This document shows, one piece after another, positions 3,063 through 52,239 of a stretch of DNA of 64,000 bases. Where the stretch lies: the IMG/VR virus record IMGVR_UViG_3300032931_000905, positions 25,021-89,020 of that record; one strand, 5' to 3'. The notes below the pieces were generated by a model. That model saw only the letters and a program-made list of their open reading frames with translations. It was not told the origin of the DNA and made no database searches. Origin of the DNA: a virus. Made by a program: the position numbers and the translations under genes. Every line of letters begins with the position of its first letter. Positions within the stretch are counted from its first letter, which is position 1.

Positions 3063-3064
3063 GA

Positions 3065-35937: not shown

Positions 35938-35941
35938 GTTA

Positions 35942-36017: not shown

Positions 36018-36022
36018 ATATT

Positions 36023-36507: not shown

Positions 36508-36555
36508 GAGAGATTATAGCACAGTATTCATGCCCTGTCAAGTGCTATTATAAAT

Positions 36556-36860: not shown

Positions 36861-36868
36861 TTTCATTG

Positions 36869-37069
36869 TTACCATGAGTCATAGTCTGTCAAATTACACA
36901 TGATACCGGTAGCCATATTTTCGACTTCAATGACCGTACCGATACCTGTCGGAGAAACATGAAACTCAAATGCCATGGGGCGTCCACCTGAGAGTTTCTT
37001 CTGTTTGCTCTGTTTGCGAATAAAGACTTCCAGGTTCTTCACTTCTTTTGCATTCAATTGAAACTTCAT
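36869..37069 (-). CDS. small hypothetical protein
   Basis: MKFQLN...PTGIG..V...T...LTDYDSW. Confidence 0.55.
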   Translation of the reverse strand: MKFQLNAKEVKNLEVFIRKQSKQKKLSGGRPMAFEFHVSPTGIGTVIEVENMATGIMCNLTDYDSW

Positions 37070-37083
37070 ACTATACTCCAAAA

Positions 37084-37168
37084 TGGCGGAGAGGTGAGTA
37101 GTCGAAACCCAACCTTTCGGTCCCACCCGCTTCAAACGGGGTTCAGTGCCCTGACTGATTACCTCTCC
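37084..37168 (-). tRNA. tRNA-Ser(TGA)
   Basis: Long variable arm, GCCA end. Confidence 0.8.
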
Positions 37169-37269
37169 TCAATATCCTAGAAGCCAGGTGGCCACGACAC
37201 CAATAGTCGCCGTAATCACAAAGGCTAAACCTAATGCTTTCCAATTGATCTGCATAGTATACCTCCAAA

Positions 37270-37357
37270 TGGCGGAAGAGACAGGATTTGAACCTGCGTG
37301 GCTTTGACACCGCATCCCTTTCCAAGGGAGCCCGATTGGCCTCTCTGGCACTCTTCC
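37270..37357 (-). tRNA. tRNA-Ser(GGA)
   Basis: Long variable arm, TTGGAAA loop, GCCA. Confidence 0.88.
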
Positions 37358-37367
37358 AAAAAACTTA

Positions 37368-37457
37368 TGGCGGAAGTGTGAGGACATGCTCCCCAGGGTA
37401 TCTAAGGCCCCAATCCGCTTTCGAGACGGTTCCGACACCTTGATCGGTTACACTTCC
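37368..37457 (-). tRNA. tRNA-Ser(CGA)
   Basis: CTCGAAA loop, long V arm, aberrant T loop. Confidence 0.78.
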
Positions 37458-37460
37458 ATA

Positions 37461-37547
37461 TGGCGGAAGAGGGAGGACTCGAACCCCACGGTGTGACCCG
37501 CAATCCGGTTAGCACCCGGTTCAGCTACCCTGCACTGGTCCTCTTCC
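37461..37547 (-). tRNA. tRNA-Ser(GCT)
   Basis: GTGCTAA loop, long V arm, GCCA. Confidence 0.82.
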
Positions 37548-37556
37548 ATCTAAAAT

Positions 37557-37841
37557 TGAGGAGCGCCCAACCATTGTCACATACACCCCATCCCTACCAT
37601 GCACCGCCTCATCCAATCAGTGTGCTGCGTAGGTGTGAAGGATTGTGTATTTCCCTTCACCCGTCAGAATCGGCGTTCGCTATGGATTAACAACGCCACG
37701 ATTCTGTAAAACATTTTACCCCAGTATCCAGATTAGACCGTCGATCAAACGGCCGCTGTTGTCCTTCGTCCGCTGTGGTAAATGCCTTAGGTTCGTATGT
37801 CGGTCTCGCCTGAGAGAAAGCCTTGCGGCCTACGCTCCTCA
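37557..37841 (-). ncRNA. unassigned ~285-nt structured RNA
   Basis: Ends pair (TGAGGAGCG/CGCTCCTCA); several internal hairpins; fills the gap between two tRNAs. Confidence 0.6.
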
Positions 37842-37844
37842 TTA

Positions 37845-37921
37845 TGGTGTCCCTGGGTGGACTTGAACCACCGATTTCAGACTTCGCAGGTCTGCGTCTT
37901 TTCCATCTGGACCACAGGGAC
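37845..37921 (-). tRNA. tRNA-Arg(GCG)
   Basis: CAGAC-CTGCGAA-GTCTG, CCA. Confidence 0.85.
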
Positions 37922-37935
37922 ATATTTCTGGCACA

Positions 37936-38010
37936 TGGTGAACGGTGCTGGTACTGCCCCAGCTTAGTCTTCCTTGTAAGGGAAGTGCATATCTTTCCTG
38001 CCCACCGTCC
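37936..38010 (-). tRNA. tRNA-Val(TAC)
   Basis: CTTCC-CTTACAA-GGAAG, CCA. Confidence 0.8.
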
Positions 38011-38018
38011 GTAACGTA

Positions 38019-38093
38019 TGGAGCCCTCAACCGGACTTGCGCCGGTCTATCCACCTTACCAAGGTGGCGAATCGCTATCTATTCTTTGAGGGC
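38019..38093 (-). tRNA. tRNA-Thr(GGT)
   Basis: CCACC-TTGGTAA-GGTGG, CCA. Confidence 0.85.
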
Positions 38094-38115
38094 ATATTTA
38101 TTCGTATGGGAGCAT

Positions 38116-38192
38116 TGGTGCCGAAGGAGGGATTCGAACCCTCACTGTGCTGCTTTTGAGACAGCCGCCTCCTGCCGTTGGGCTACTTCGGC
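38116..38192 (-). tRNA. tRNA-Leu(CAA), short variable loop
   Basis: GCTGT-CTCAAAA-GCAGC, CCA. Confidence 0.88.
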
Positions 38193-38197
38193 ATAAT

Positions 38198-38274
38198 TGG
38201 TGCTGGCGAGAGGAATCGAACCTCCACTTGTCCAGATTTTAAGTTTGGTGACTCTGCCTTTGGTCTACGCCAGC
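38198..38274 (-). tRNA. tRNA-Leu(TAA), short variable loop
   Basis: CTTAAAA loop, CCA. Confidence 0.85.
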
Positions 38275-38279
38275 ATACA

Positions 38280-38354
38280 TGGAGCCCCGTACCGGATGTG
38301 CGCCGGTTTCTGCGGTGTACGAAACCGCTGAATCACTATCAATTCTTACAGGGC
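38280..38354 (-). tRNA. tRNA-Thr(CGT)
   Basis: GCGGT-TTCGTAC-ACCGC, CCA. Confidence 0.82.
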
Positions 38355-38356
38355 AT

Positions 38357-38385
38357 AGTATAACACGACCCCCGATTATTGTCAA
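38357..38385 (-). promoter_or_regulatory. sigma70 promoter inside the tRNA island
   Basis: TTGACA-N17-TATACT immediately upstream of tRNA-Thr(CGT). Confidence 0.75.
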
Positions 38386-38488
38386 GTACAAAAGTGTTCC
38401 TGCTCCTTCTAGCCTTCTAGGGTCCCCTCATACCAGGATTGGGGTAGCGGATCGTTGCCGCCTCGGGTCGTGATAAGTTATACCAGAA

Positions 38489-38711
38489 TTAGACTCGGGC
38501 GTCCAGCGCGGCGGTCACTTCCTGCACCCCTGCCAATGTGGCGTCCAAGGCGGCTGGTGCCACTAATCCTGCTTGACCCGCGGTCAAGGCATCAACTTGG
38601 GTCTGCAAGGTCTGCAAGGCGGCCAACTTCACGGCGTCACGGGCGGCTTCTGCCACCTGTGCGGCCTTCAAATCTGCAACGGCACTTTCTAATTCTGCAA
38701 CTGTAGCCATG
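38489..38711 (-). CDS. small Ala-rich coiled-coil protein
   Basis: GAGGAG SD before MATVAELE; late promoter TATAAATA at ~38858. Confidence 0.55.
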
Positions 38712-38870
38712 TGTGTGTCTCCTCGTTGAATAAGTTGTTTCACTAACCGATATAACTCCTCGATGGAATGCTCGTCACCACCCATACAAAAATCGTGTAC
38801 CGACTTCAACCCCTCAAACGTTTCATCATGTTGCATAACGCACCCTCCTTCTAGGAGTATTTATACGCAT

Positions 38871-38945
38871 TGGTCAGGCTGGTTGGACTCGCACCAACAT
38901 GGTCTCCGTTCCGAACGGAGTAGTCAACTTTTGACCCACAGCCTG
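38871..38945 (-). tRNA. tRNA-Pro(CGG)
   Basis: CTCCG-TTCGGAA-CGGAG, CCA. Confidence 0.85.
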
Positions 38946-38950
38946 AATCA

Positions 38951-39024
38951 TGGAGCGGGATGCGGGTTCTGCCCCCGCGACACCGGTTTGGAAGACCAGC
39001 ATGTTGCTGCTACACCAATCCCGC
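38951..39024 (-). tRNA. tRNA-Gly(TCC)
   Basis: CTGGT-CTTCCAA-ACCGG, TCCA. Confidence 0.87.
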
Positions 39025-39247
39025 ATTATTCTTTATCAATACACCGATCTTTCGTAACAGGGCACTACCGAATTCTTTGGCGATATCATTCTCCATGTCA
39101 GGAGGATTGTACTCCAAAAAATCTTCAACCAATACCTCAGACATTGTAAGGGTGACCGTAATCTGTTTACGGAATTCATCGTCGATATCCATTCTCACCG
39201 ATTCGACAATCACCAGGTCTTGGTCTTTGGGTCTCATACTATCCTCA

Positions 39248-39322
39248 TGGAGCGGGTGGTGGGAATCGAACCCACATGATCCTTCTTGGCAGAAAGGTGA
39301 ACTACCAATGTTCCACACCCGC
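39248..39322 (-). tRNA. tRNA-Gly(GCC)
   Basis: CCTTT-CTGCCAA-GAAGG, TCCA. Confidence 0.87.
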
Positions 39323-39326
39323 GTTA

Positions 39327-39400
39327 TGGTGCTCCCTCGGAGAATCGAACTCCGGTGTGCCGGTCTTCAGGCGGTCGCTCTACTTTTGAGCTATTGAGGC
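39327..39400 (-). tRNA. tRNA-Phe(GAA)-like, apparently chimeric or defective
   Basis: D and T arms intact but acceptor (GCCTCAA/AGGGAGC) and anticodon stems mispair. Confidence 0.55.
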
Positions 39401-39404
39401 ATAA

Positions 39405-39480
39405 TGGCTCCAGGGGCAGGGATCGAACCTGCGACATCCTCATTAACAGTGAGGCGCAACTACCGCTGTGCTACCCTGGA
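39405..39480 (-). tRNA. tRNA-Asn(GTT)
   Basis: CCTCA-CTGTTAA-TGAGG, GCCA. Confidence 0.92.
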
Positions 39481-39496
39481 ATACATTCTATACTTA

Positions 39497-39570
39497 TGGT
39501 AGGGGTTCATGGTACCGCCCCATGGTTCACGGCTTCAGAAACCGTTGTCTTGCTATTAGACGAAACCCCT
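39497..39570 (-). tRNA. tRNA-Gln(CTG)
   Basis: ACGGT-TTCTGAA-GCCGT, CCA. Confidence 0.82.
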
Positions 39571-39575
39571 ATAAA

Positions 39576-39650
39576 TGGAAGCCCCCGTTGGAGTTGCACC
39601 AACCTAATCCGGGTCAAAGCCGGATGCCTAAGCTGCTCGGCCAGGAGGCA
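39576..39650 (-). tRNA. tRNA-Gln(TTG)
   Basis: TCCGG-CTTTGAC-CCGGA, CCA. Confidence 0.85.
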
Positions 39651-39667
39651 ATAATTTCTTTTTTCTT

Positions 39668-39742
39668 TGGTGGTCCGCCAGGGAATTGCACCCTGTTCCC
39701 CGGTTTAAGAGACCGGTGCTCATCTACTAAAGCTTGCAGACC
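39668..39742 (-). tRNA. tRNA-Lys(CTT)
   Basis: CCGGT-CTCTTAA-ACCGG, CCA. Confidence 0.87.
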
Positions 39743-39750
39743 GTCTATCT

Positions 39751-39825
39751 TGGAGTACCGGATAGGAATTGCACCTACATAGAGCGGCTTTGCAGGCCGC
39801 TGCCTCGCTATTCAGCCACCGGTAC
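39751..39825 (-). tRNA. tRNA-Cys(GCA)
   Basis: GCGGC-CTGCAAA-GCCGC, TCCA. Confidence 0.88.
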
Positions 39826-39942
39826 AAAATTCTCGTTACCAGGTAAACAGAACCCATCCTACTGAGAGGGAAAAGGACCTATAGTTATCTCGGTCCACTG
39901 TGGCATCGTATAGTAAATGACCCCACATGATACCCTCCATTA

Positions 39943-40018
39943 TGGCGCGCCGGACGGGAATCGAACCCGCTTGGTTCTCCTCGACAGGGAGATGTCCTTA
40001 CCAAATGACTCCCAGCGC
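39943..40018 (-). tRNA. tRNA-Asp(GTC)
   Basis: TCTCC-CTGTCGA-GGAGA, GCCA. Confidence 0.87.
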
Positions 40019-40174
40019 ATTTATTCTTTATCTCTTGCTTCCTTTTCCATGCGCTTGATCTTGTCCAGGTCCTTTGCGGTCCAACAGGGAGCCGCCCCAA
40101 CCTTATGTGGTTTGCACATCGGACAACTTCTCTTCTTGGACTTGTAAACTTTCATCAAGTCTCCTGTCAACTTA

Positions 40175-40258
40175 TGGTGGAGGTAGTAGGAATCGAACCT
40201 ACTGGGTATTAGCAAGGCTTTTACAGAGCCCCCTCGCGCCGTACGAGACTATACCTCC
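40175..40258 (-). tRNA. tRNA-Tyr(GTA)
   Basis: GGGCT-CTGTAAA-AGCCT, extended variable region, CCA. Confidence 0.85.
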
Positions 40259-40264
40259 GTTCAC

Positions 40265-40429
40265 TGGTCGGCAGGCGCCTTTCCGTCTTGCATCAGAAGA
40301 ACAATGCCGCTCGGCGAAACGCCGCGGAACTGATCTTTCCTAAGCCGTCATGGTGGCTATCCTGCCTCAATCGAAAACTTTGGGCACGTAAGCACTTCGT
40401 AGTGGTACGCATCAAGCAACCCGCCGACC
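40265..40429 (-). ncRNA. unassigned ~165-nt structured RNA with acceptor-like stem and ACCA end
   Basis: 5' GGTCGGCGGG pairs with 3' CCTGCCGACC(A); internal hairpins. Confidence 0.5.
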
Positions 40430-40460
40430 TCTATCTTTGGGGCGCTTGACTGCCCCGCCG

Positions 40461-40535
40461 TGGTGCCCCCACTGGGTATCGATCCCAGTTTTTCTGCTTG
40501 AAAGGCAGATGAACTAGCCAGTATTCGATGGGGGC
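40461..40535 (-). tRNA. tRNA-Glu(TTC)
   Basis: TCTGC-CTTTCAA-GCAGA, CCA. Confidence 0.87.
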
Positions 40536-40549
40536 GTAGTTCAAAAATG

Positions 40550-40833
40550 TAGGGTAACTTAATCAGCCTTTAGGCCTTGCTGAAGGAAACGCGCATTTCC
40601 CGTCTGGACTTACTTTGGTGGCCAGACTCTCGTTACCACTTGCTCGTCAAAAATTTGGGGTGCCTTGGTCCTCAGTTATTCCCCGGCAGGGAGGACTCCG
40701 CGAATTGCCAGGCCAGATGTTCCCAGATTCAGCACCCCTTGGGAACCCACGAAATATGCCGGGGGAAGATTTCACGTTCGTACCAACTTCTTCGGATTTT
40801 GAATAACGCACCATATCTATGCACGTTACCCCA
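40550..40833 (-). ncRNA. unassigned ~280-nt structured, probably pseudoknotted RNA
   Basis: Terminal GGGTAAC/GTTACCC; internal CCCCGGCA/TGCCGGGG, GTTCCCA/TGGGAAC, GGGGTGC/GCACCCC, GTCCTC/GAGGAC, GTCTGG/CCAGAC. Confidence 0.6.
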
Positions 40834-40926
40834 GTCCGTTGGTGTTCCGACCCGACTCTCTGCCTCTGATCTTCTGAGAGGACTTAAAATGACCGGCGCT
40901 TCTGATCGTGGTACCGGGCTTCCACT

Positions 40927-41184
40927 TTAGACCATACTTAACTGGACACTAAAACCACACCATGTTCCTGCAAGCCCAACAGCCGGATCTTTTTCTCGGA
41001 TTCGTTCCAGTTCAGTGATGGCGGCTCTCACGGCATCATTGACCTTCGTAAAATCTCCTACCCCGTTCACTATCGCGGCCCTAGACGTAAAAAACGAAAT
41101 CCCATTGATTATGACCCTGAACCGCTGAAACGTCTCAAACTCTTTCACAGCTTGTTTCCTCTGTTGTGTTTTCTCAATCATCAT
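40927..41184 (-). CDS. hypothetical early protein
   Basis: ATG just downstream of a TTGACT-N17-TATACT promoter (41190-41218). Confidence 0.6.
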   Translation of the reverse strand: MMIEKTQQRKQAVKEFETFQRFRVIINGISFFTSRAAIVNGVGDFTKVNDAVRAAITELERIREKDPAVGLAGTWCGFSVQLSMV

Positions 41185-41272
41185 ATTAAGAGTATAACAG
41201 AGCCCCTACACAGAGTCAAGCATTATTTGCCACATTAGAGAAATATAATGTACTGCAAAATCAACAACTTAG

Positions 41273-41361
41273 TGGTACACCGGTTGGGAATCGGACCCAA
41301 TCGAGGTGGTAATCTGCCACAAAGAGGTTATAAATCTCTCTTGCCTCCAAGGCGCCGGTGC
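41273..41361 (-). tRNA. tRNA with TAT anticodon (Ile) and long variable arm
   Basis: AGAGA-TTTATAA-CCTCT; V arm GTGG-CAGATTA-CCAC; very short D loop; CCA. Confidence 0.75.
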
Positions 41362-41448
41362 AAAACTTTTATGAGCGGAAGACTGGTAACTACGTCTTCC
41401 CTTTCCCCTCTGCGCTGTCTCACCAATTACAGAGGACTCAAAAACTTA

Positions 41449-41522
41449 TGGTGGGACGCAAGGGACTTGCACCCTCATCTTTCGGCTTAAAAGGCCGATA
41501 TTCTGCGTTGAACTAACGTCCC
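41449..41522 (-). tRNA. tRNA-Lys(TTT)
   Basis: TCGGC-CTTTTAA-GCCGA, CCA. Confidence 0.87.
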
Positions 41523-41529
41523 GTCTCTA

Positions 41530-41606
41530 TGGTGCGCCTGAGAGGATTTGAACCTCCACTGTACGGTTTCTAAAACCGTCGCCTCCTGCCGTTGGGCTAC
41601 AGGCGC
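41530..41606 (-). tRNA. tRNA-Leu(TAG), short variable loop
   Basis: ACGGT-TTTAGAA-ACCGT, CCA. Confidence 0.88.
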
Positions 41607-41613
41607 GTAATGT

Positions 41614-41687
41614 TGGTCGCGGTAGAGGAACTTGCATCCTCTCGATACGACTTATGAAATCGTTCGGCTTCGCTGGTGCCTACCGCG
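41614..41687 (-). tRNA. tRNA-Met/Ile2(CAT)
   Basis: ACGAT-TTCATAA-GTCGT, CCA; atypical D arm. Confidence 0.72.
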
Positions 41688-42309
41688 TCTGCTTCATTTT
41701 TCTACCCTTGATCCATCCAACCGGAATAGGATCGGTCTTTTTTATTTGACCATTCTCGTATGTCTGAGGATTCGTAATCCATATTTTACCAAAATTAGGA
41801 TTTCGTTCTCCAAGATTAGCAATGGCGTTGGCTGCGCCTATTTTCTTTTTGCTTTCATCAGAATGGTGCTTGCCGGCGAATCCATTCACCATCAAACCAT
41901 TAGCCCAGGCATCCTTTGCTGTCTGCCTACATATCTCTATAGTTTGGGGTGTATGTCTTTTACCAAGGAAAGGACGGGCTGATTTCCCTCCCAGGCTATG
42001 TAAACGGCGCCAATCTTCGGGTGTTCTATTCCTATTGATGAAATCAAATCCCCCTTCACCACCAGATTTCAAATTATAACTTTGTGGTCCAAGGACGACC
42101 AATTCTTTTTCTTTGGTAAACATTTCCTCCGCTGAGGAGGCTTCAAATAAAATCTCTTTCTTGAAATTATCCAGTCCGTATTTCGTGACGGCTTGCTTCA
42201 GGACTGTACCGGAACCCATGTACCCATCATCTTTATCTAAGGTCTTATGGCATCCGATATAGGTTTTTCCATTCAGGACATTCATAATTTGGTATACAAG
42301 ATAGTGCAT
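41680..42309 (-). mobile_element. GIY-YIG/NUMOD3 homing endonuclease (Seg-like)
   Basis: VYQI.N..NGK.YIG.H..DDGYMGSG, YNL..GG.GG, GK.H..E motifs; late promoter at ~42331. Confidence 0.88.
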
Positions 42310-42385
42310 AGTTAGTCTCCTTCTATGCACTATTTATAATAGTTCAATACCTAGGTATCAAACTCCCCCTGTTTCTCAAGAGGGC

Positions 42386-42462
42386 GGGTTGCGGGTACTG
42401 GAAATCGAATCCAGTGAACTCCAGGTTATGAGCCTGGTGAGATGCCACTTCTCCAACCCGCA
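42386..42462 (-). tRNA. tRNA-Met(CAT), initiator-like; 3' end ACCC rather than ACCA
   Basis: GCGGG.TGGAG 5' part, CCAGG-CTCATAA-CCTGG. Confidence 0.8.
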
Positions 42463-42708
42463 GATTCTTTATAATGGCAATAACTCTTCTTCTAAAACTT
42501 CTGGCCAATAGATTCCACCAGCGTGAACGGGCTCCCTCACTTCATAGACCCAGGACTTCTCTAACACAGACCAAAAAACATCCTCCACCTTCAAGACGGT
42601 ATCTCCTATACGCCTGACCTTCTGCCCAATATTAAACTTGGAGTCATTCATCGGGATATCTGACTCGGTACGATAATCTTTCACCTTCATGGTCTCTCCC
42701 ATAATAAA

Positions 42709-42948
42709 TTAGACTGCTTTCTTGATCCGCACCAGGTGGTACGAATCCACCACTTCATGAGTCAAGATCGTATGCCCATCCTGTTCGACACTTCTAGGCA
42801 CATTCTTAATCGGGGCCCCATCATCGAGCAGGACCGCAAGGATCTGCCCTTCTTCCAGGTCATCCAATTGTAACTTTGTTTTCACAAAATTAAACGGACA
42901 CATCACCCCGCGCAAATCTAAAAATTCTTCCTCACCAATTTTGCTCAT
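42709..42948 (-). CDS. TusA family sulfurtransferase
   Basis: LDLRGVMCPFNFVKTKL.LD.L..GQ.L.V.LDDG.P..NVP.S...GH. Confidence 0.92.
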   Translation of the reverse strand: MSKIGEEEFLDLRGVMCPFNFVKTKLQLDDLEEGQILAVLLDDGAPIKNVPRSVEQDGHTILTHEVVDSYHLVRIKKAV

Positions 42949-42951
42949 ATG

Positions 42952-43107
42952 TTACTTTCGATGCGCCTGGATCGCGGCACTTAACTTTCGATACACTTCT
43001 TTGGCGGCCATGGTCCATTCCTCTTGCGCCGGGTACCCGAGAAACGCGGCCTCTGAGGCTTTCTGTTCATCATAGGACAAGGATCGAACGGGTACTTTCG
43101 TTTCCAT
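42952..43107 (-). CDS. 51-aa hypothetical protein (METKVPVRSLSYDEQKASEAAF...)
   Basis: GGAGG SD; below the ORF-track size cutoff; resembles (from memory) a small Nitrospira protein family. Confidence 0.6.
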   Translation of the reverse strand: METKVPVRSLSYDEQKASEAAFLGYPAQEEWTMAAKEVYRKLSAAIQAHRK

Positions 43108-43135
43108 GTGACCTCCATAGATGGAAGAATCCTAC

Positions 43136-43207
43136 TGAGGCGTCCTGACCGCTAGACGAACCCGCGTCGAATGCCGCCGGTGCAGGATTCGAACCTGCGT
43201 TTCCTCA
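43136..43207 (-). ncRNA. circularly permuted tRNA-like module (YrlA/Y-RNA-like)
   Basis: Order TGAGG - T arm (GCAGG TTCGAAT CCTGC) - acceptor-like stem closed by a loop - D arm (GTCT AGCGGTC AGGAC) - CCTCA. Confidence 0.75.
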
Positions 43208-43218
43208 TGCTCTACAAA

Positions 43219-43293
43219 TGGTCTAGGTGACAGGATTCGAACCTGCATGATCTCGGCCCCAAACCGAGTGCCTGGCCATTAGGCTACACCTAG
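43219..43293 (-). tRNA. tRNA-Pro(TGG)
   Basis: CTCGG-TTTGGGG-CCGAG, CCA. Confidence 0.88.
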
Positions 43294-43311
43294 ATACGCT
43301 CTACAAACTTA

Positions 43312-43385
43312 TGGTGGACCGCCAGGGAGTCTCACCCTGTCTTCTCCGGTGCAAGCGGAGTGTGCTCATGTAACACCTGCGGCCC
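43312..43385 (-). tRNA. tRNA-Ala(TGC)
   Basis: CTCCG-CTTGCAC-CGGAG, G3-U70, CCA. Confidence 0.85.
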
Positions 43386-43468
43386 GTATGTTTATCGTCT
43401 AAGGGTTATATCGTGAATCAATCTGGCCATTTAGCGGCCACGGAGCAACTCACAACCCTTAGACTACA

Positions 43469-43541
43469 TGGGTGACGGACGGGTACTGCCCCCGCGTATC
43501 CTGTGCCACAAACAGGCGCTCTACTATTGAGCTACAGTCAC
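43469..43541 (-). tRNA. tRNA-His(GTG)
   Basis: CCTGT-TTGTGGC-ACAGG, CCA. Confidence 0.82.
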
Positions 43542-43570
43542 AATCGATCCTCAGTGTCTCTCTGAGGAAA

Positions 43571-43644
43571 TGGAGCCGAAACCGGGAATCGAACCCGAAT
43601 CCACGCATTACAAGTGCGTTATGTTTCCATTACACCATTCCGGC
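43571..43644 (-). tRNA. tRNA-Thr(TGT)
   Basis: ACGCA-CTTGTAA-TGCGT, CCA. Confidence 0.9.
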
Positions 43645-44161
43645 ATCTCTCAAAATGATAACGCTTCATTGCATTTCTACCTCCGACCTTTTGGCAGCGA
43701 GGACAGGTGACCTTTGAGTAGGTGACCCCAGTTTTACTTAAAATCATTTTCCTAACCTGTGACTCAGGTATCTTTTTTCCTCTCCAAATAGCACCAGCAG
43801 CATCCTTTTGTTTTTGAGAATTTTTCATGCCAAGCCGTGCTTGGTTTCCTTTCATGAATTCAACTCTGGCGGCATTCTGTTCTGCGGTACGCTTGACTCC
43901 CAGGGCTCTCTTCTTTCCTGTATTAGCAAACGATGCTGCCAATCTATGTGCTTCCTCTTTTCCTATCTGCTTTGAAATACTCAATGCCGCAATGTTGTCG
44001 TACTGACTCCCATTCAATTCTACGAGTAACCGGTGAACCTGAGCATGTTGTTCTGTTGTCAGGTTCACCAAATTCTCTTGAGCGTTCAAACCTCTGACAT
44101 TTCCAAACCGACTCTTCCACTCATGTCGGGGTATTACATGATGCCACGGCATACGATCCAC
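43619..44161 (-). mobile_element. HNH-NUMOD homing endonuclease
   Basis: HHVIPRHEW..NLV.LT.EQHA..H; C-terminal CPRC..MKRYHF..C. Confidence 0.75.
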
Positions 44162-44689
44162 CTATTCAAGAGAAGTATGCCAATAAAGGTATGAAACCCA
44201 GTTCTCCGGGGTCTTACGGATACCCACGGTCACGGTCAACACCTGGCTCCATACGGGTTGCTTCGGTGTCTTGAGCAAACGCATTCCTGCTTGCCCTGGT
44301 GTGCGCCCCGCCTTACGAGAATTGCACGGTACGCAAGCCGTGATAATGTTTTCCCAGGACTTCTTGCCACCCAAGGCCACTGGGTTCACATGGTCGAAAG
44401 TCAGTTCTTCCGTGGGGAACTTCACACCACAGTATCCGCACTTGCAACCGTCACGGGCAAAAATGTTCGCCCTGGTAAACTTGACTGGGATCTTGCGCTT
44501 GAGTCTGACCATGGTCAACATTCGCAAGACCGAAGGGATCTTCATGGAAAACGAAATCGAATGGATCTCTTCATCGTGTTCCTCAATGACTTCCGCCTTC
44601 CCCTGGCACCAGAGGGTCACGGCTCGTTGCCACGACACAATCTGCAAGGGCTCGTAACTGTGATTCAGCACTAATGTAAAGGCGCTCAT
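44162..44689 (-). CDS. HNH endonuclease (McrA-like)
   Basis: LVLN.SYEPL..VSW.RA, R.NIF.RD...C.YCG, TFDHV.P..GG..WEN....C..CN..K. Confidence 0.9.
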   Translation of the reverse strand: MSAFTLVLNHSYEPLQIVSWQRAVTLWCQGKAEVIEEHDEEIHSISFSMKIPSVLRMLTMVRLKRKIPVKFTRANIFARDGCKCGYCGVKFPTEELTFDHVNPVALGGKKSWENIITACVPCNSRKAGRTPGQAGMRLLKTPKQPVWSQVLTVTVGIRKTPENWVSYLYWHTSLE

Positions 44690-44713
44690 AATAACTTCCT
44701 TCTTGAAGGCACA

Positions 44714-44787
44714 TGGCATACCTACGAGGAATTGCACCCCGATCATTCGTTTTGGAGACGAATATGTTGCTGTTACACCACAGGTAT
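44714..44787 (-). tRNA. tRNA-Trp(CCA)
   Basis: TTCGT-CTCCAAA-ACGAA, GCCA. Confidence 0.86.
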
Positions 44788-45015
44788 ATGTCTCTTGTGG
44801 TATGGACCGCGTTTCTTTCCGATCATTCGTTCAGACTTCTTGCAATTCCTCAAGAATGAATGGGCCAATGCTGCCAACCACCACAAGTCAATCGTTCATA
44901 ATCCGATACGGCTTGTTACCGTCGAAGCAGCACCTTATGATTGCCCTTCCGCATGTCAGTAGTTGCACTTCCCTTCATGCGTCTAGGACCCTGTCTTGGC
45001 CAGAACAGGAGGTAT

Positions 45016-45089
45016 TGGTACGCATTCACAGAATTGCACTGTGATCATCCGCTAATCGGGCGGAGGTACTGCTGTTGTACGAAATGCGT
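45016..45089 (-). tRNA. tRNA-Ile(GAT)
   Basis: TCCGC-CCGATTA-GCGGA (C33), CCA. Confidence 0.78.
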
Positions 45090-45097
45090 ATACTATT

Positions 45098-45175
45098 TGG
45101 TGGAGTGCCTGGGGTTCCAACCCAGCTATATCCTACATGCCATGCAGGTGACCACCGCCAGCAGTCTCGCACCCC
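45098..45175 (-). tRNA. tRNA-Ala(GGC)
   Basis: CCTGC-ATGGCAT-GTAGG, G3-U70, CCA. Confidence 0.82.
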
Positions 45176-45192
45176 AAATTCTTCCCACATTC

Positions 45193-45301
45193 TGAGAGTG
45201 TCTTCTGGTTGTTGGTCGCCGATACCCTAGGGCATATGACCTCCCCACTCTACGGTCGCGCTCACCAGATCGTTCACTATATCCCGTGGAGGGCACTCTC
45301 A
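45193..45301 (-). ncRNA. unassigned ~110-nt structured RNA at the head of the tRNA island
   Basis: TGAGAGTG/CACTCTCA closing stem; internal TCTGGT/ACCAGA, GACC/GGTC. Confidence 0.5.
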
Positions 45302-45321
45302 TGATTCAAAAATTCTTCCCC

Positions 45322-45360
45322 AAAAACAAAAAAGAGCGGGGATTTCTCCCTCGCTCTTTT
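45322..45360 (-). terminator. intrinsic terminator (attenuator candidate) upstream of the tRNA island
   Basis: AAAAGAGCGAGGGA-GAAA-TCCCCGCTCTTTTTTGTTTTT. Confidence 0.85.
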
Positions 45361-45392
45361 GGTAACCTATGACTGGGAGAAGTCGATAGGTC

Positions 45393-45497
45393 TTACATAT
45401 CGGTACCGAACATTGGAATCCCAAAGGACGCCTGCCAGGCATTCATGCCTTCAGGTGATTGGGTATTCAGTTTGCTATAAGTACAATGGCTCTGCAT
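45393..45497 (-). CDS. putative leader peptide MQSHCTYSKLNTQSPEGMNAWQASFGIPMFGTDM
   Basis: 34 sense codons between promoter and terminator; 18 amino acids, 27 distinct codons. Confidence 0.6.
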   Translation of the reverse strand: MQSHCTYSKLNTQSPEGMNAWQASFGIPMFGTDM

Positions 45498-45521
45498 AAT
45501 CGTTCTCACACCGTTAAAGAG

Positions 45522-45550
45522 AGTATAACACAATCAGGATCGCTTGTCAA
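45522..45550 (-). promoter_or_regulatory. sigma70 promoter at the head of the tRNA island
   Basis: TTGACA-N17-TATACT with TG just upstream of -10 and AAAATAG upstream of -35. Confidence 0.85.
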
Positions 45551-47928
45551 GCACTATTTTCAGTTCTATTTAGGGAAGTTCGTGGTTTGCTCTAAAACCC
45601 AACAAAATCATCCGTTTCGTCGTCGTCGCCCTTCTCATGCCACGGATAGTCACCGTCCGTATTGGCTACCCCAAATCCCTGCTTAGTTGAGGGTAGCAGC
45701 ATCAGATCATGCCCCCGTAAAATTTCCAGAACTGATAAATTCATCACCAGGGTGGCATCCATATTCCACAAGAAGGCCTCGGCCTTCTCTTTGGTGGAAA
45801 ACCTGAGGGCCTTATGGGTCTCCATATTGGCCACGACTTTGTTGTTCTGTCCGGTCACGACCAGAATATATTCGTATTCGTTTAACATACCCACCTATTT
45901 ATTCAATGTCCATACCAGAACGGATGACCTTCATGAGTTTCCAAGAATCCTTGAGCACCTCAGCCGTATACAGCTTGCGTTCAACCACGGCATTCTGTTC
46001 CAGGGCTTTGAGGCGCTGGATCTGGATATCCAGACGGTGTTGTAATGAGTCTTTGGCGGCCTGTCCAGATCCAAGCGATTTCATCTTAGGCTCCAAAGAT
46101 CGGACCCAGGGCACTGGTCAGGAGATACATAGCCAGGCGATACCCGAACCACACAGGCCAGAAGCATCCATAGAGGAGTCCCCACCAAAATCCATAGACA
46201 CCCCAGACCGCCCAGAACACCCCCAGACCAACACCTGAGATACCCAGGGCTGGATACGGGACATAATGGTTTTTCGTCTTGATCGTCTTGATCGTGTCCA
46301 TGTTACTCGCTCCCCAGGATTGCGGCTGCACCTAACAAGGTCGCTGTCGGGGCACTCATCGGTACGCCGGTGTCAATGGTCAACTCAGTCGGTGCCACCG
46401 GATGATGTTCCAGATAGGTCCCATGATGCGGCCGCGCGGGATTCGGTGTCTGGTATTGGACCTCTCTCCAGGCCTGCCGGCGGGCTTTTTCCTGAGGTGC
46501 AAGGTTCCGAGATTCTGCGCGAAGCACACGGGCCTCCGCACAACGAACAAGCCGAGTCATTGATGGTGTCATGATCCGAGATACCTCCATGGTGTAGAAT
46601 ATACAGAATACCTAAAATGCTTATGAAACGCTGACTTGGAAATCTGCGACACACTCTCGACCTTCAAGGGCTCGTCGATGTACCGATTACCAGAGGCCAC
46701 ATGGATCAAGAGGACCTGGCCGGCCTTGATCTGGGCCAGGAGGTAGACCTGTTCCGCCTCAGGTTCAGGTTCAAGACAGCCCTTCGTGGTGATACCAAAT
46801 TGCATCCCTGTGGCAAAATACTTCGGTTCTTTGATCGTCACTCTCTTCTTCATGCTAATCTCCATTCATCCGCCAAGTGCACCAATTCCTGGGCCGTCGG
46901 CTCATTAGGTTCTGTGTCTTCTTCGTCGTCCAACTCAGGCCAAGACTGGGCTATGAGGCGCCTGTTGGTCTCGTCGATCTGTCTCCGTTCTAACTTGGTC
47001 ATGCGGTCACCTTTCTCAGCAATTCCGCAGCCCCCAAGGGATCATATAGGGTCGATCCTCTGTGGACCCTGGTGCCATAATTCATGGTCTTCAAGACAAT
47101 ATAGACTTGATCCATCACCCCTGCCTCATTGTAGAACAAGGTCACGACATGGCCCAAGGCTCGGGCTCGGTCTCGTAGGGTCTTGATTTCTGCCAGGTGG
47201 GTCATGATTACTTCAACTTTCCTGTCTTGGAATCCGCAGCCAACGCATAATACCCAGCCGTCTGAATTTGATCGAACATGGCACTGATATTAGCCTGAAG
47301 GCAGTGCCGCCACTTCGCTAAAAACTCTTTGTTCTCTGCACCAGGTGTTAGGGACTCCATGGTAAGGAACAATGAACTCAGGTTATTATGGACCGACACC
47401 TCTGCACCACCTATCTCCTGTAACAATGCTCGCTTGGTCTTCAACATCTTCTGTGGTTTCATGATTACCGCACCACCTTGCGGCCCATGCGAGCCGGGAT
47501 CTTCGTGGTCTGTTTCTTCTGGGCGCCGTACGCTTTCGCATCTTTGCACATCGTCACTTTTCCGCCTCGATTCAAAAATTCTTGTACTGTCTCGTTCATC
47601 GCATCCCCCTTGTTAAAAGTCACATTCATCATAGTAAGAGTATAACATACGGGTATCTCAGAGTCAAGCATTATTTTCGTATGTAACTCGTTGATTTTAC
47701 TTGGTACCTGAAGAAATTGTTCATGATTTCTTCCTCACTTCGACAAAGGCCTCTGCTCTCAGGCAGGCCCCGTTGGATAATTGATACAGGCGCAGATCCT
47801 TGTTCGATGGATCGACCTCGATGGCCTGGGGTGACGTACCGACGATCCCCATGACCACGGCGATGGTGAAACTCCCTGGGCCCCAGGTATACTTGACCCA
47901 GTCTCCGACTTCTATGGTTTTCATCATC

Positions 47929-48777
47929 TTACCTCATACAGGTGACAACGGCCAGCTTCTGCCATCCGTTGGGGTTCATCTTGAGGAGACCCGCAAGCTT
48001 GAGGACCATACGGAGAGACAATTCACGCAATTTCTCCTGGTGCTTCACAATAAACGCCAGGATCTCAGATTCCTGGGTTGCGGTATATCCGGTATCCTTC
48101 AGCATCCCTTGTGCCAGGACCTGCTTGATCCTCACAATATAATCGAGCTTGGTGTGCATTGCCAGATCCAGATAGTGGCTTCTGGAAATCATCGCTTCAA
48201 AATGGGGCGCCAACTTGGTGCCCTGCTGAATCATGGCATCGAAGTCATAATTCGTAATGAAAATGATCGAACCTTCAAACTCAAAGGACCTGGGGAGGCG
48301 TTCGCCTTCCTCGTCTTCCATCTTGGACTCGGTGAGCCATGACAGGGTCCGCGTCTTGGTCATGTCGCAGGCGGTCTTGAGGATATTCAGCGACACATCA
48401 TCGCCAAACACCGAATCCGCATCGTCAAACACGATCACGCAGTTTTTGTGGCGGAAATCAAACAAGGTCTTATACAGACCGGTCGGGCGCACAAAGCCGC
48501 GGACCATCTTGGTCTGATAGCCCTTTTTCTCTAGCCCCTCGGTCACTTGCATGACGCCGTGGGACTTACCAAGACCCGCAGGTCCTGAGATAATCAGACT
48601 CCGATTCTTTCCGGTTGCGGTCGCTTGGGCCATCAGATTCATGGCTGCAAAACGGTCGGTCAACTTTATCAGGACTTCAGCTTCGGTTTCCACTGGGCGC
48701 ACGATCTGCGGCACGTTCAGCCCCTTGCGGAAGGCGATCATCTGAGCTTTTGTCCGTCTATGTCGTTTGGTCTTCAC
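47929..48777 (-). CDS. P-loop ATPase (AAA-like)
   Basis: GPAGLGKS Walker A, IVFDDAD Walker B, F.F.G.IIFITN, A..SR. Confidence 0.85.
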   Translation of the reverse strand: MKTKRHRRTKAQMIAFRKGLNVPQIVRPVETEAEVLIKLTDRFAAMNLMAQATATGKNRSLIISGPAGLGKSHGVMQVTEGLEKKGYQTKMVRGFVRPTGLYKTLFDFRHKNCVIVFDDADSVFGDDVSLNILKTACDMTKTRTLSWLTESKMEDEEGERLPRSFEFEGSIIFITNYDFDAMIQQGTKLAPHFEAMISRSHYLDLAMHTKLDYIVRIKQVLAQGMLKDTGYTATQESEILAFIVKHQEKLRELSLRMVLKLAGLLKMNPNGWQKLAVVTCMR

Positions 48778-50435
48778 TTCGTTCTTCTCCGTGTTAATCT
48801 GTTATTCGTCAATCTCTATAGTGTTATAGTAACATAGTGATACCATAAATGCAAGAGAAATCGTCTAGTTCTTTGGTAGGGGGTCTGTTCATGGATTGAA
48901 CAGCGTGATTCCCCATAGTAGGAGTCGAATCGCCGAATATCGTTGATCCTGGGCCTTCCTGAGCGGTTGTAGAGCATAGTCTGAGGTGAACGGCATAACA
49001 CTGTGCAAAATTGTGCAGTTAGATACAGTACGCAAAGAGGATAAGCACGGCGACAATCACGGCAATAGTCCAGGCGGTTTGCTGCATTTCTTTCATATTT
49101 GCGTCTGATCGGTTCATGGGATCTTTCTGTTAGAGGCAAGGGTCGTGCCTCGGGTTGGAGCGAGCGAGTCTATTATTTTGGTCGCACACCCTGGAACCAG
49201 TCGCAATTCCGCCCGAGGCTACCCTGACTCAAAACCATACTAATCGTTGGCATCTGGATTCTTGTTTTTCTCGTCTTCGATCTCGTGGTCCTCGGCGATT
49301 ACCGTTGAAGTAAGGCATGATCTTATCCTTTGAAATACAGGTAGTAGCCTAGCACTAAGAGGCCAATGGCCAACACTTTCAACATCTTCTGATACATGAG
49401 GCGATTCAAGGCCTTGAGTTCCTCGCGGCTCATCATTTCCTCATGTTCATCATTGGCGCCAAACATTATGCGTACCTCTTGCGGGTATCCTCATACACGG
49501 CAAACGTGGTCGCAAATCGCTTCAGGCAGCCTGATCGCTTGGAATACTTCGAACGAGTATCGCCAATCGCGGTGTTACGGGGGCCACGATACATGACCCG
49601 GATTTTCTTTGTGGTATAGCCCTTCATGAACCGCATGGTCATGTCAAATTCACTCATCGGGATATTTTTCAGAATGCTTCGTTCTTTCATCGTCTTCTCC
49701 ATTATGTTTCGTTCAATCATCATGGTATAAGTGTAACATAGTGGCAGAGAGAATGCAAGAGAAATCTGCCAGATTAGACAATTATAATGTATCACAAGTC
49801 ATTGATTTTGCTGTTCTTTTCAGAAAGCTATGGGTAGACTCGCTCGCAGGAATAAGCCGGGCATCCCAAAATGCTGTTTTTCGAACTTCTTTGGTCTTTG
49901 GGTCCATCCAGGCAACCCAGACATAGTGCCGACCGTATTTCATGCCAGCATCTTCCACGACCAAGCCAGAAACTCGTTTCATGCCATACTTATCCGCATG
50001 TCGGACGATAGCACCAAGGGAGATGTTTTTTTGTGAAATCTTCATGCTGTATTCTCCCATATTGGGCAGAATAAGTCAAGTAGTTCTTTGGTAGGGGGTA
50101 TTTCGTGTTGTCAGTGGGCGGCCGCTCGCTAATTCCCTCGATAATTGATGGGCCAGGGATTTTAAGATCACCTCATACATGTATTCCTCGCTCTGGTTGA
50201 GCCGGTACAACTCAGTGTCATCTAGCATGGATTTCTCTTGAGTGGCGGTTTAAGGAATGGGAGGCCGTTATCCGTGAGTCCTGCACGATAAATGACTCTT
50301 CATCTGGGAGCGCAGCCATCCAGTTCTGGGGGAGGCCGCGCCGGGCATCATTATGGTCCCTCAACGGGTCCCTCAATGGGTACCCGCGCCGGGCATCAGT
50401 ATGGTTTCTCACATGTTGGGTGAATGCCGACCAGT

Positions 50436-50732
50436 TCATGGTTGTATCACGGGCTCGATCACCGAAGGAGTGGCCGGGGTCCTCTCGGTCCGTAATTCCT
50501 TGACCAAGGAGACCGTATCACAACCTGCTCGCACATACTGACTATCCATTAAACAGCGAACCGCCGCAAGATCGGCCTTCTGATCGATGGCATGACGAAT
50601 CAAGGAGGCATTGAGTTTGTTGCTGGTCACATTGTTGACGGTGATGCCCAGAATAAACACCATCGCCAGGATGCCCAGCACCACGATCAAATAGCGAAGG
50701 TCTTTTGAGTTATCATGTGGATTAAAGGACAT
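50436..50732 (-). CDS. membrane-anchored hypothetical protein
   Basis: N-terminal TM helix. Confidence 0.5.
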   Translation of the reverse strand: MSFNPHDNSKDLRYLIVVLGILAMVFILGITVNNVTSNKLNASLIRHAIDQKADLAAVRCLMDSQYVRAGCDTVSLVKELRTERTPATPSVIEPVIQP

Positions 50733-51371
50733 GAGAATTCTCTACTTTCTTGGCGGTCACGATCACCGTGGAGCGCGAGGTTTGTTGTTTCTTGGTGTAT
50801 TCCTCCATGATCTCGGCCTTCTGGGGAATGGGTAACGTGGAATACTTGGTATAGGTCATACCCTTCATGGAGGTGAGCCATGTTCTCAGGGCGCCTCTGG
50901 TGCCTATGGTCTTGTTCCCCTTGTAATCCTTCTTCTGTTCTGCATCGCTGCTATAATTCGACATGATGATCCTTTGGTTAATGTAAGGGAATTATATCTT
51001 CTTGATCGTATTGGCATTCGCCGTAATCACAATATTCGGGGATTCCTCAAGCCGAATCCGGGCGGATTCTTGTTTGAAATCCAAGGACTCAAGCTTCCCT
51101 GTGACGCCCACATGATACCCAGAAATGAATTTTACTCGATCTCCTGGTTTCATTCATCACCATCCTTATCACGACTGTTGAAAAAATCAGTCAATGCGTC
51201 TTGCGCCGTTCCCAAGGCCTTTTGTGTTTGGACCGTTCGATTGTCGCGGCAATAGGAACATTGATTATGGTTCCGGCAATGGGGATCGAATGCCTTGGAC
51301 TTCCGATACGGCTTCCGTTGTTCCTTGCCTGAGGCAATCGCTTTATCCAGTGACATAGGCGTTATTATACA

Positions 51372-51803
51372 CTATTGGGTGCTGGTTGTCAAGTGAATTT
51401 TTTTGAGATGGGCTTTTCGAATACGGCATGATACCCATTCATTAAAATACCGATCTGAGAGGAGCGCATGTCTGGTAAATATCTCGAATGCCTCGAAATA
51501 GGAACATTCGGCCCTTGAATGGCAGAGATGGAGAATGGTTCTGGTATACCGATCGGTACCGTTCTGTGCAATTTCCGCCTTCAGGACTTCGTTTGATCCC
51601 CAGTATCCGACCCAATCGGAGGTCTTGCGGATCTTCTTCTTTTTCCCTTTGATCTGCTTGGTGCCGGCTTTGGTAAAGAATTTTTTCCCACAATATTTCA
51701 TGCCCGTGGTCGTATCCTCGATCAGATACACGAAGCCCCACAGCTTCGTGAGATCGGTGGTGGTATCGGGAAACAGGCCTCCTTGATAGGTCCAGTCACT
51801 CAT
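51372..51803 (-). CDS. GIY-YIG nuclease (Seg-like)
   Basis: GFVYLI.D..TG.KY.GKK, SDW..YWGS, R.IL.LC, Y.E. Confidence 0.82.
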   Translation of the reverse strand: MSDWTYQGGLFPDTTTDLTKLWGFVYLIEDTTTGMKYCGKKFFTKAGTKQIKGKKKKIRKTSDWVGYWGSNEVLKAEIAQNGTDRYTRTILHLCHSRAECSYFEAFEIFTRHALLSDRYFNEWVSCRIRKAHLKKIHLTTSTQ

Positions 51804-52239
51804 CGGTTATCCTTCATCATCGTCATCGTGTTGCCAGGCCCAATCAGGCCTAGGGGTTTCGTCTTTGAGATTCAATTTTTCACCACAAAACGGACAATAA
51901 ATCAACTCACCTTCGGTACTCACCTCATCGAAGATCACTACAAATGTTGCTTCACATTCTGAGCAATGAATCTGCGGAGAAGACATTATAGAATTTTTCC
52001 GGCATTGGATGCCAACAGGACAATGATATCGAGGCTCTGTTGCAGAATCAATTTGGTTTCAAGCGCATTGGTATAATTGATCACGCGCACCAGCCGCTCA
52101 AGATCCTGGATGAGTTCTTGATATTCTGAGGGGGTGAGTTCTCCGTTCTTCAGGGCATCATGGACCTGTGCCAGGCGCAGCGCACAATCTGCAATGTCTT
52201 TATTGGGATGAAAAAATAAGGTCTTTAGTTGTTCAATCA

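Follow-up and report, generated by a model that had tools for sequence, protein, structure and literature searches.

A conserved promoter, mini-ORF, hairpin and terminator module at the head of a phage tRNA array is a candidate translation-coupled attenuator

We analyzed a 64,000-nt stretch of DNA (hereafter the window), which corresponds to bases 25021-89020 of the 89-kb IMG/VR virus record IMGVR_UViG_3300032931_000905, a record with an estimated completeness of 53%. Its minus strand carries a self-contained module of ~250 nt, which comprises a promoter, a 34-codon open reading frame (ORF), a hairpin (H1) right after the stop codon and a strong intrinsic terminator, followed by the genes for tRNA-Ala and tRNA-Ile; the leader RNA would be ~200 nt long. 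This layout is a conserved module that heads the tRNA array in relatives, and its retention in diverged ones points to a translation-coupled valve on tRNA transcription. We tentatively read it, from its sequence, as a transcription attenuator that would depend on ribosomes and act on the first tRNA block, a proposal to which we give slightly less than an even chance of being correct.

The regulation of the tRNA sets of large phages is essentially unknown, and tRNA genes are not usually regarded as targets of leader-peptide attenuation. If the proposal is correct, a translated leader would make the supply of phage tRNAs depend on the decoding capacity that the infected cell has at that moment, which would bear on codon mismatch, host shut-off, and tRNA-targeting defences. 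Even with a constitutive terminator, the module would show how the output of a strong early promoter is held back ahead of a block of tRNA genes.

Anatomy of the leader module

The mini-ORF, encoding MQSHCTYSKLNTQSPEGMNAWQASFGIPMFGTDM, lies at 45393..45497 on the minus strand (ATG 45497, TAA 45395-45393). H1 (45364..45392, minus strand) begins at the very next base and consists of 7 bp, a bulged C, 4 bp and the loop UCUCCC (45380-45375). Only 3 nt separate it from the intrinsic terminator (45321..45360, minus strand), which reads AAAAGAGCG-A-GGGA / GAAA loop / UCCC-CGCUCUUUU, then UUGUUUUUG, with the stem at 45360-45330 and the U tract after it. UUCUCCC (45375..45381, minus strand), at the H1 loop, is complementary to GGGAGAA (45344..45350, minus strand) within the terminator, and the two form the candidate 5' and 3' strands of an antiterminator. 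An initial annotation of this DNA had described both the hairpin after the stop codon and this complementarity, and the RNA folds as described there.

The two hairpins are unusually stable: the 3' 83 nt that hold them fold at -31.1 kcal/mol (z -4.81), which 0 of 200 shuffled sequences matched, and the whole 199-nt RNA has a z score of -3.29. When a terminator was defined as a hairpin of -9 kcal/mol or better that runs into a T tract, no other one was detected on the minus strand within 33000-52000 (19 kb). A looser scan of both strands of the whole window gave 24 terminator candidates, a handful of them canonical by eye, the best being that of the module and one at 17464. This other strong terminator (17440-17510, minus strand) is directly followed by a consensus promoter, the reverse of the order in the module. 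An Rfam cmscan of 45318-45600 at E <= 1 detected no leader or other RNA family. We also considered a tRNA-like minihelix formed by H1 and ACCA, and rejected it by eye for want of a T-loop signature.

The promoter, located by a promoter scan, is of the sigma70 early type and, together with an A/T-rich stretch upstream of it, occupies 45522..45572 (minus strand). Its -35 hexamer TTGACA (45550-45545) is followed by a 17-nt spacer and TGtTATACT, with TG at 45530-45529 and TATACT at 45527-45522 on the minus strand; with this extended -10 element it scores 11/12, which makes the promoter of the initial annotation a near-consensus one. Promoter-like sites as a class are not enriched in the region (19 vs. 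16.0 +/- 3.8 in shuffles). The same type of promoter is present at 47667, 41219, 38385, and 36541, and many small genes of this phage are early genes behind it. At 47667, 41219, and 36541 (minus strand) the ATG stands 5-7 nt after the -10 hexamer, which implies leaderless mRNAs. By analogy with these leaderless promoters, the transcription start of the module is predicted at A45515; the 18-nt 5' untranslated region (UTR) between this start and the ATG (45498..45515, minus strand) would make the module leader an exception among promoters of that type. In this UTR, the weak Shine-Dalgarno-like element GAGA (45507-45504) may serve as the ribosome site. It is found 6 nt 5' of the ATG in the window and 5 nt in the diverged relative L009 described below, and the letters around it differ between the two.

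The module in a diverged homologue

A diverged homologue of the module is present in L009, part of a 178.6-kb contig that was found by scanning IMG/VR with 24 nt of the tRNA-Ile gene. L009 has the elements of the module in the same order as the window. On its coding strand the promoter scan detected tandem promoters at 401-429 and 470-498, followed by a GAGA element and, 5 nt further on, by a 32-codon ORF, MSLYQRDRKLNTNECQGTRSSWPAPIHFGTIM (ATG 520, TAA 616-618), a hairpin with the loop ACCCCG (623-654; 7 bp, bulges, 5 bp) that begins 4 nt after the stop codon, a 14-bp terminator at 661-692 that replaces the one of the window, a tRNA-Ala gene at 701-773, 2 nt after the last U, and then the same tRNA-Ile gene. 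When we searched with a covariance model of H1 and the terminator built from the window and the close relative L007, the L009 site was the best of 13 matches in 68,196 bases (19.9 bits, E 0.003).

The H1 lower stem covaries between the window and L009: 4 of its 7 pairs are changed on both sides, and 21 of 21 cells of the alignment remain paired. Only 5 of 500 shuffles do as well, and partners slid out of register pair at 21-47%. The upper stem of H1 in L009 has, by eye, likewise been rebuilt from other letters. The match of the H1 loop to the terminator arm is also kept in other letters, as CCCCGG:CCGGGG in L009, and measures 7 bp in the window, 5 bp in L007, and 6 bp in L009. Its chance with random loops is P 0.0013 for the 7 bp of the window and P 0.0058 for the 6 bp of L009; when the match may lie anywhere from the stop codon to the terminator, it is 0.027 for the window and 0.057 for L009. 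Since the match in the window was picked out by the initial annotation, L009 is the fair replication.

The peptides of the window and L009 share only ~12 residues (M1, KLNT, G, W, A, P, FGT, and the last M), and although their ORFs differ in length by 6 nt, the two conserved blocks of L009 are linked by one uninterrupted frame. These two blocks (45459-45476 and 45393-45410 in the window, 541-560 and 601-619 in L009) are nearly letter-identical, third codon positions included, and encode K L N T and F G T x M stop. Their conservation may stem from a short UACC/GGUA helix, from a peptide of the arrest type, or from a signal for pausing.

Close relatives and public sequencing runs

The 100-aa protein encoded upstream of the module has three relatives with 76-93% identity in the protein collection, and a metagenome scan gave three JGI contigs, L005, L006, and L007. 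L007 carries the whole module, L005 the promoter and the first 19 codons before it ends, and L006 ends in the upstream gene. The promoter is kept in L005, L007, and L009. In L005 an extra small ORF (915-1180), membrane-like by eye, stands between the gene for the 100-aa protein and the module promoter, and homology resumes at ~45572, past this inserted ORF, which indicates that the promoter is part of the module.

Compared with L007, the window has 2 differences in the 159 nt of 45479-45321, against 32 in the 409 nt of flanking sequence (45888-45480). The differences are distributed as 17/297 nt in the upstream gene, 9/76 in the intergenic region and promoter, 6/36 in the 5' UTR and codons 1-6, 0/87 in codons 7-34 and the stop, and 2/72 in H1, spacer and terminator. 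Both changes in the latter part fall on unpaired bases, one on the H1 bulge at 45385 and the other in the terminator loop at 45345 (GAAA to GCAA), so that the terminator is kept in L007 with the loop GCAA. From the synonymous divergence of the flanking genes (pS 0.12-0.29, pN 0.02-0.10), ~3 synonymous changes would be expected in the 87 unchanged nucleotides, which we take as weak evidence for a constraint at the nucleotide level from codon 7 onward.

In 20 of the 24 public runs listed, 9-17% of the words sampled from a 601-nt query were present. We compared the run contigs for four of the 24 (two RNA rows and the two top DNA rows), and in all four there were contigs on ~45318-45490 that continue into unlike DNA downstream. 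By eye, their loose ends resemble 5' parts of tRNAs, and that of X3 resembles the tRNA-Ala of L007. The variants of X18 and X11 are known in part, from the differences listed. Contigs of the RNA runs bridge the terminator, but because contigs cannot show transcripts, even from RNA runs, we draw nothing from them on expression. Among the differences listed, the indels are a 3-nt deletion inside the ORF at 45408 and 1-nt deletions outside it at 45391 and 45356; the reading frame has survived sequence divergence and three length changes, all of them in frame.

Composition of the mini-ORF

The initial annotation had noted the 34-codon ORF at 45497-45393 for its broad composition, and its counts are correct: the peptide has 18 of the 20 kinds of amino acids (R and V are missing), 27 distinct codons, and no residue more than four times. 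The ORF has no cognate-codon run and is enriched in no amino acid. The in-frame GTG at 45509, which according to the initial annotation would add Arg, is found in the window, but L005 and L007 have GCG there.

The 27 distinct codons are ordinary (P 0.12-0.17). The 18 kinds of amino acids are not rare either: they lie only in the 4-5% tail when the window is taken alone (null mean 14.7-14.9, P(>=18) 0.036-0.050), and six of the 119 short ATG ORFs (30-40 aa) of the window reach at least 18. Amino-acid diversity is high again in L009, with 19 kinds in 32 codons (P(>=19) 0.003-0.005); given the 10 kinds at shared positions, its 20 variable positions supply nine of the ten missing kinds (P 0.018-0.027).

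The 34-aa ORF was called as a gene in five other assemblies. P0005, P0006, P0007, and P0008 come from the protein collection, and P0009 (68% identity) was added by a profile search of 1.84 billion representatives, in which only P0005 and P0009 were true relatives. In all seven peptide variants the frame is uninterrupted, with 34 codons in six of them and 32 in L009, and the peptides have 18, 19, 19, 20 (P0007), 19, 16 (P0009), and 19 (L009) kinds of amino acids, against a null mean of 14.4-14.9. The long hairpin that the initial annotation had drawn inside the leader is in the minimum free energy fold only in part (CCCAA/UUGGG), and the variants of relatives imply breaks in it; more generally, we rejected helices inside the ORF, which are broken by changes implied, from the peptides only, in P0005, P0007, and P0009.

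Searches with the peptide itself gave no family: P0004 and P0009 matched 0 Pfam families at E <= 1, and the ESM Atlas returned no usable match. The other 13 profile matches (P0010-P0022) were rejected as translated CRISPR-like repeat arrays, in which FNTQ[SP]PEGG[CW] is repeated 4-8 times. We judged the NTQSPEG that these arrays have in common with the window peptide to be a chance resemblance amplified by repetition, and dropped a reading of the module as an RNA anti-CRISPR as L009 is without this motif.

tRNA genes beyond the terminator

The initial annotation correctly placed the first RNAs of the island beyond the terminator, where we found an insert followed by tRNA-Ala and tRNA-Ile. The insert (45187..45310, minus strand; 134 nt), between the terminator and tRNA-Ala, has no match in L007, is flanked by exact 10-nt direct repeats GGGAAGAATT (45320-45311 and 45186-45177) and holds a foldable RNA of ~110 nt; in one X1 contig it is absent, and 45105 is joined directly to 45311. 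The insert resembles a small RNA gene whose arrival duplicated the target.

The tRNA-Ala(GGC) at 45098..45175, whose G3:U70 pair was read by eye, and the tRNA-Ile(GAU) at 45016..45089, both on the minus strand, were detected by ARAGORN with -ps95. Default ARAGORN and an Rfam cmscan on the window gave nothing before the tRNA-Trp at 44787. Homologous tRNA-Ala genes were identified by Rfam in L007 (1988-2060) and L009 (701-773), starting ~13 nt and 2 nt after the U tract, respectively. The tRNA-Ile is 98.9% identical to that of L007, which scores 44.9 bits in Rfam though the near-identical window copy was missed, and a 24-nt stretch of it is identical in L009.

Downstream of the module, scans for sigma70-like promoters were negative on the coding strand of L009 from 498 to 5603, a stretch with ~15 tRNA genes, on the coding strand of L007 after 1774 to its end, and, for the window, on its minus strand from 45522 down to 41219. 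These tRNA genes must therefore be reached by read-through, unless phage-specific promoters exist. The module cannot control the whole tRNA island, as had been suggested initially, because consensus promoters stand within it at 41219, 38385 (directly before tRNA-Leu), 36892 (before the tmRNA), and 36541. At most nine tRNAs lie behind the terminator, out of ~31 in the island (ARAGORN gives 25, Rfam adds 4 above its threshold, and ARAGORN in relaxed mode another 2). The island also holds two copies of TATAAATA, which may be the T4-type late-promoter motif. The window has six copies where 1.0 +/- 1.0 are expected, at 1495, 7511, 17538, 38858-38865, and 42331-42338 on the minus strand and at 56771 on the plus strand.

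Proposed mechanism

We propose that the strong early promoter would make a leader of ~200 nt with a translated mini-ORF of 32-34 codons. The C-rich H1 loop could pair with the G-rich 5' arm of the terminator, and this pairing would exclude the terminator stem. A ribosome at the last codons would have to unwind H1, so the position of the leading ribosome at the time RNA polymerase transcribes the terminator would decide between a stop and run-on into the tRNA genes. The geometry alone allows this, as H1 begins 0-4 nt after the stop codon, where the position of a ribosome could alter the fold. Given the size of ribosome footprints, only a ribosome at the last codons or the stop codon would unwind the 5' arm of H1. 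As the stop codon precedes H1, a ribosome stalled at codons 1 to ~28 cannot touch the hairpin, and only a mechanism based on timing would make every codon count.

Two opposite signs of the switch can be drawn. In the first, H1 would hide the loop strand and a ribosome at the end of the ORF would free it, so that translation keeping pace with transcription would give read-through. In the second, the intact H1 loop would itself pair with the terminator arm as an H-type pseudoknot antiterminator, which a timely ribosome would destroy; late arrival after slow decoding of any codon would then give read-through. The pseudoknot would have a core of 5 bp, CUCCC:GGGAG in the window and L007 and CCCCG:CGGGG in L009, with one loop base left over and a linker of 13 nt in both lineages (counted by hand). 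Because RNAfold cannot score pseudoknots, this second sign is something we infer. It would explain why the L007 variant is tolerated, why an ORF of broad composition is used and why the position of a stall would be irrelevant, and we lean very slightly toward it, that is, toward read-through with a late ribosome.

With this sign, the quantity sensed would be the total decoding time of a broadly composed ORF, as reported for the upstream ORF (uORF) of whiB7 (PMC10274678; Poulton et al., 2023, preprint). The mini-ORF might then be a gauge of decoding time in which any slow codon class, whether from starvation, cleavage of tRNAs by host anticodon nucleases, or host shut-off, would let the pseudoknot survive and RNA polymerase run on into the phage tRNA genes. 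We regard this more specific function as rather unlikely; if true, it would amount to a self-regulating tRNA supply.

Several observations weigh against attenuation. Thermodynamics alone gives no support, and the case for a switch is comparative: H1 with the terminator folds at -30.8 kcal/mol and the alternative state at -14.4, and the alternative pairing in the window takes up no more of the terminator than its loop and upper 4 bp. When the transcript is cut before the 3' arm of the terminator, the partner that RNAfold predicts for GGGAG in the window is the H1 loop (P 0.83), but in L007 and L009 the terminator arm prefers partners inside the ORF (P 0.5-0.6 and 0.98, respectively). The gain of the arm with the real upstream RNA is 2.8, 2.8, and 3.9 kcal/mol vs. 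a mean of 5.6-6.1 with shuffled RNA, and 85-95% of shuffles do at least as well, so there is no excess propensity to form an antiterminator. The A-to-C change at 45345, present in L007 and one X1 contig, removes one U-A pair of the 7-bp match, which leaves 5 bp, and is not compensated. On the side of translation, the Shine-Dalgarno-like element is weak, and the ORF differs between the window and its close relative L007 by 3 non-synonymous and 1 synonymous substitutions, which gives no indication that the peptide is under purifying selection. P0009, with 16 kinds of amino acids, is without C, D, F, and V, which counts against strict selection for a complete set. Finally, the nucleotide data come from three lineages only. 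A comparable leader is found in L005 (in part), L007, and L009, but the more distant relative L004 has a tRNA array without one.

Alternative explanations

The most serious competitor of the attenuator, unlikely in our view but far from negligible, is that the module is a stand-alone early mini-gene or a small stable transcript of ~200 nt, with a constitutive terminator and a 34-aa peptide. The downstream tRNAs would then be expressed by a fixed leaky read-through or from phage-specific middle or late promoters invisible to a sigma70 scan. The strength of the terminator, the dominance of the H1 and terminator fold over any other, and the lack of excess antiterminator propensity all fit this explanation, as do the calls of the ORF as a gene in five other assemblies and the many small early genes behind the same promoter type. 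The enrichment of TATAAATA (6 vs. 1.0 expected, two in the island) agrees with it as well. It leaves unexplained, however, the compensatory upkeep of H1, the loop that still matches the terminator arm in other letters, and the tRNA-Ala gene that abuts the terminator in every relative, and its peptide neither shows purifying selection vs. L007 nor matches a family.

The hypothesis of the initial annotation was stricter than the attenuator that we favor: a sensor of all tRNAs, in which depletion or cleavage of any host tRNA, for instance by anticodon nucleases, would gate the whole island. The number of amino-acid kinds is high in six of the seven variants, with all 20 in P0007, and the diversity is replicated in the diverged L009; there is also a published precedent in whiB7, where uORF composition sets the starvations sensed (PMC10274678). 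We nevertheless consider this version doubtful in the extreme form in which it was put, and distinctly improbable overall. P0009 does without four amino acids, codon diversity is ordinary, at least four consensus promoters lie inside the island with at most 9 of ~31 tRNAs behind the terminator, and with H1 after the stop codon, codons 1 to ~28 are out of reach of all but a timing mechanism. We found no link to any defence gene, and no evidence connects the module to anticodon nucleases.

A non-coding early small RNA (sRNA) of ~200 nt, with an incidental ORF and with the C-rich H1 loop seeding on G-rich Shine-Dalgarno-like targets, would account for the absence of changes in the 87 nt from codon 7 to the stop vs. 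L007 (where ~3 synonymous ones are expected), for the two blocks identical to L009 at third codon positions, and for a 5' conservation boundary that falls inside the ORF. Some ribosome sites of the phage do match the loop, such as the 10-nt match before a 211-aa ORF, but only at chance level. This one, at G000:C1:5307-5319 (outside the window), is a perfect complement of the H1 stem and loop over the ribosome site and start of the ORF. Against an sRNA stand the kept frame and length, the lack of an Rfam family match, and the lack of a second copy or antisense target above chance in the 89-kb record. In addition, the loop is spelled differently in the different lineages, and the terminator arm has changed in step with it, which suggests an internal partner rather than a shared external target. 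We give this explanation a slim chance.

An arrest-peptide leader modeled on the tnaC-type arrest mechanism, in which KLNT, W, and FGTxM-stop would stall the ribosome at the stop codon on a ligand and hold H1 open, is highly improbable and pure inference: K9 L10 N11 T12, one W, and F G T x M before the stop are kept between the window type and L009, and all of these residues would be in the exit tunnel with the stop codon in the A site, but the comparison covers two diverged lineages only, the blocks are kept at synonymous positions too, which fits a constraint on the RNA, and the peptide does not resemble known arrest peptides.

The phage and searches for further relatives

The source phage looks from its sequence like an uncultured lineage that is T4-like in the broad sense. 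A 282-aa protein encoded 2.4 kb upstream of the module has relatives with at most 42.5% identity among 1307 phage records, mostly in T4-type phages of enterobacteria, Vibrio, and Acinetobacter. In the cultured T4-like phage DLP6, the homologue of its gene is placed among T4 replication genes; we looked for tRNAs near this homologue and found none.

Phage GenBank records contained no close relative of 44700-46200, and only the tRNA-Ala part of L009:380-900 was matched in them. IMG/VR scans with the upstream 100-aa protein, with three stretches of the window, and with one of two peptide alignments found nothing. The other alignment gave L008, which we rejected as spurious, as the match is inside a long high-GC ORF with no tRNA nearby. 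GTDB genome contigs searched with both peptide alignments gave nothing, and a protein search with the L009 ORF gave no candidate. L002-L004 are relatives by their phrog_1250-type protein (59-62% identity), the only protein in common; L002 and L003 have no tRNA within the stretch examined. Matches of the covariance model in L002 (E 0.015, at the matching place) and L003 (E 0.69; on reading, no module) were rejected.

Comparison with known systems

The layout would work like a leader-peptide attenuator but lacks cognate-codon enrichment. The classical trpL, hisL, thrL, and ilvL leaders have runs of cognate codons in segment 1, where a stalled ribosome frees the antiterminator strand. The module shares with them the promoter, short ORF, and intrinsic terminator, along with candidate alternative hairpins and downstream genes that lack a sigma70-like promoter; unlike them, it has no codon run, its ORF stops short of the first hairpin, and it would regulate tRNA genes.

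In pyrBI and pyrE of E. coli it is the distance between ribosome and RNA polymerase, not one amino acid, that sets termination, and in pyrBI the ribosome covers the terminator. The attenuator of the antibiotic-resistance gene vmlR, which also has a uORF, is reportedly of this same type. The stop codon of the module stands 33 nt before the terminator stem, so that, unlike in pyrBI, H1 and its loop would have to act as an RNA structure in between.

Small non-tRNA transcripts are also known from the tRNA region of T4-type phages. The species 1 and 2 RNAs of the T4 tRNA cluster are processed from a tRNA precursor, and differ from the module in that they have no ORF, promoter, or terminator module. 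In the portion of the literature that our search covered, we found no account of leader-ORF control of phage tRNA genes.

The closest published analogue of the module is the uORF attenuator of mycobacterial whiB7 (PMC10274678; Poulton et al., 2023). There, a short uORF is followed by a choice between antiterminator and terminator, and biosynthetic genes or tRNA/synthetase pairs for 18 of the 20 amino acids were among the hits (PMC10274678). The composition of the uORF, which in M. smegmatis has every amino acid except cysteine, sets which starvation is sensed, and loss of its start codon raises read-through and expression (PMC10274678). The module differs from it in several respects: there is no sequence relation, the product of whiB7 is a bacterial transcription factor whereas that of the module is a set of phage tRNA genes, the whiB7 uORF is enriched in alanine and the ORF of the module in nothing, and the antiterminator of the module is only a candidate, of 5-7 bp and located in a hairpin loop. 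What the two have in common is a short ORF of broad composition, which in the module would act through attenuation with the same logic as in whiB7 under the sign that we favor.

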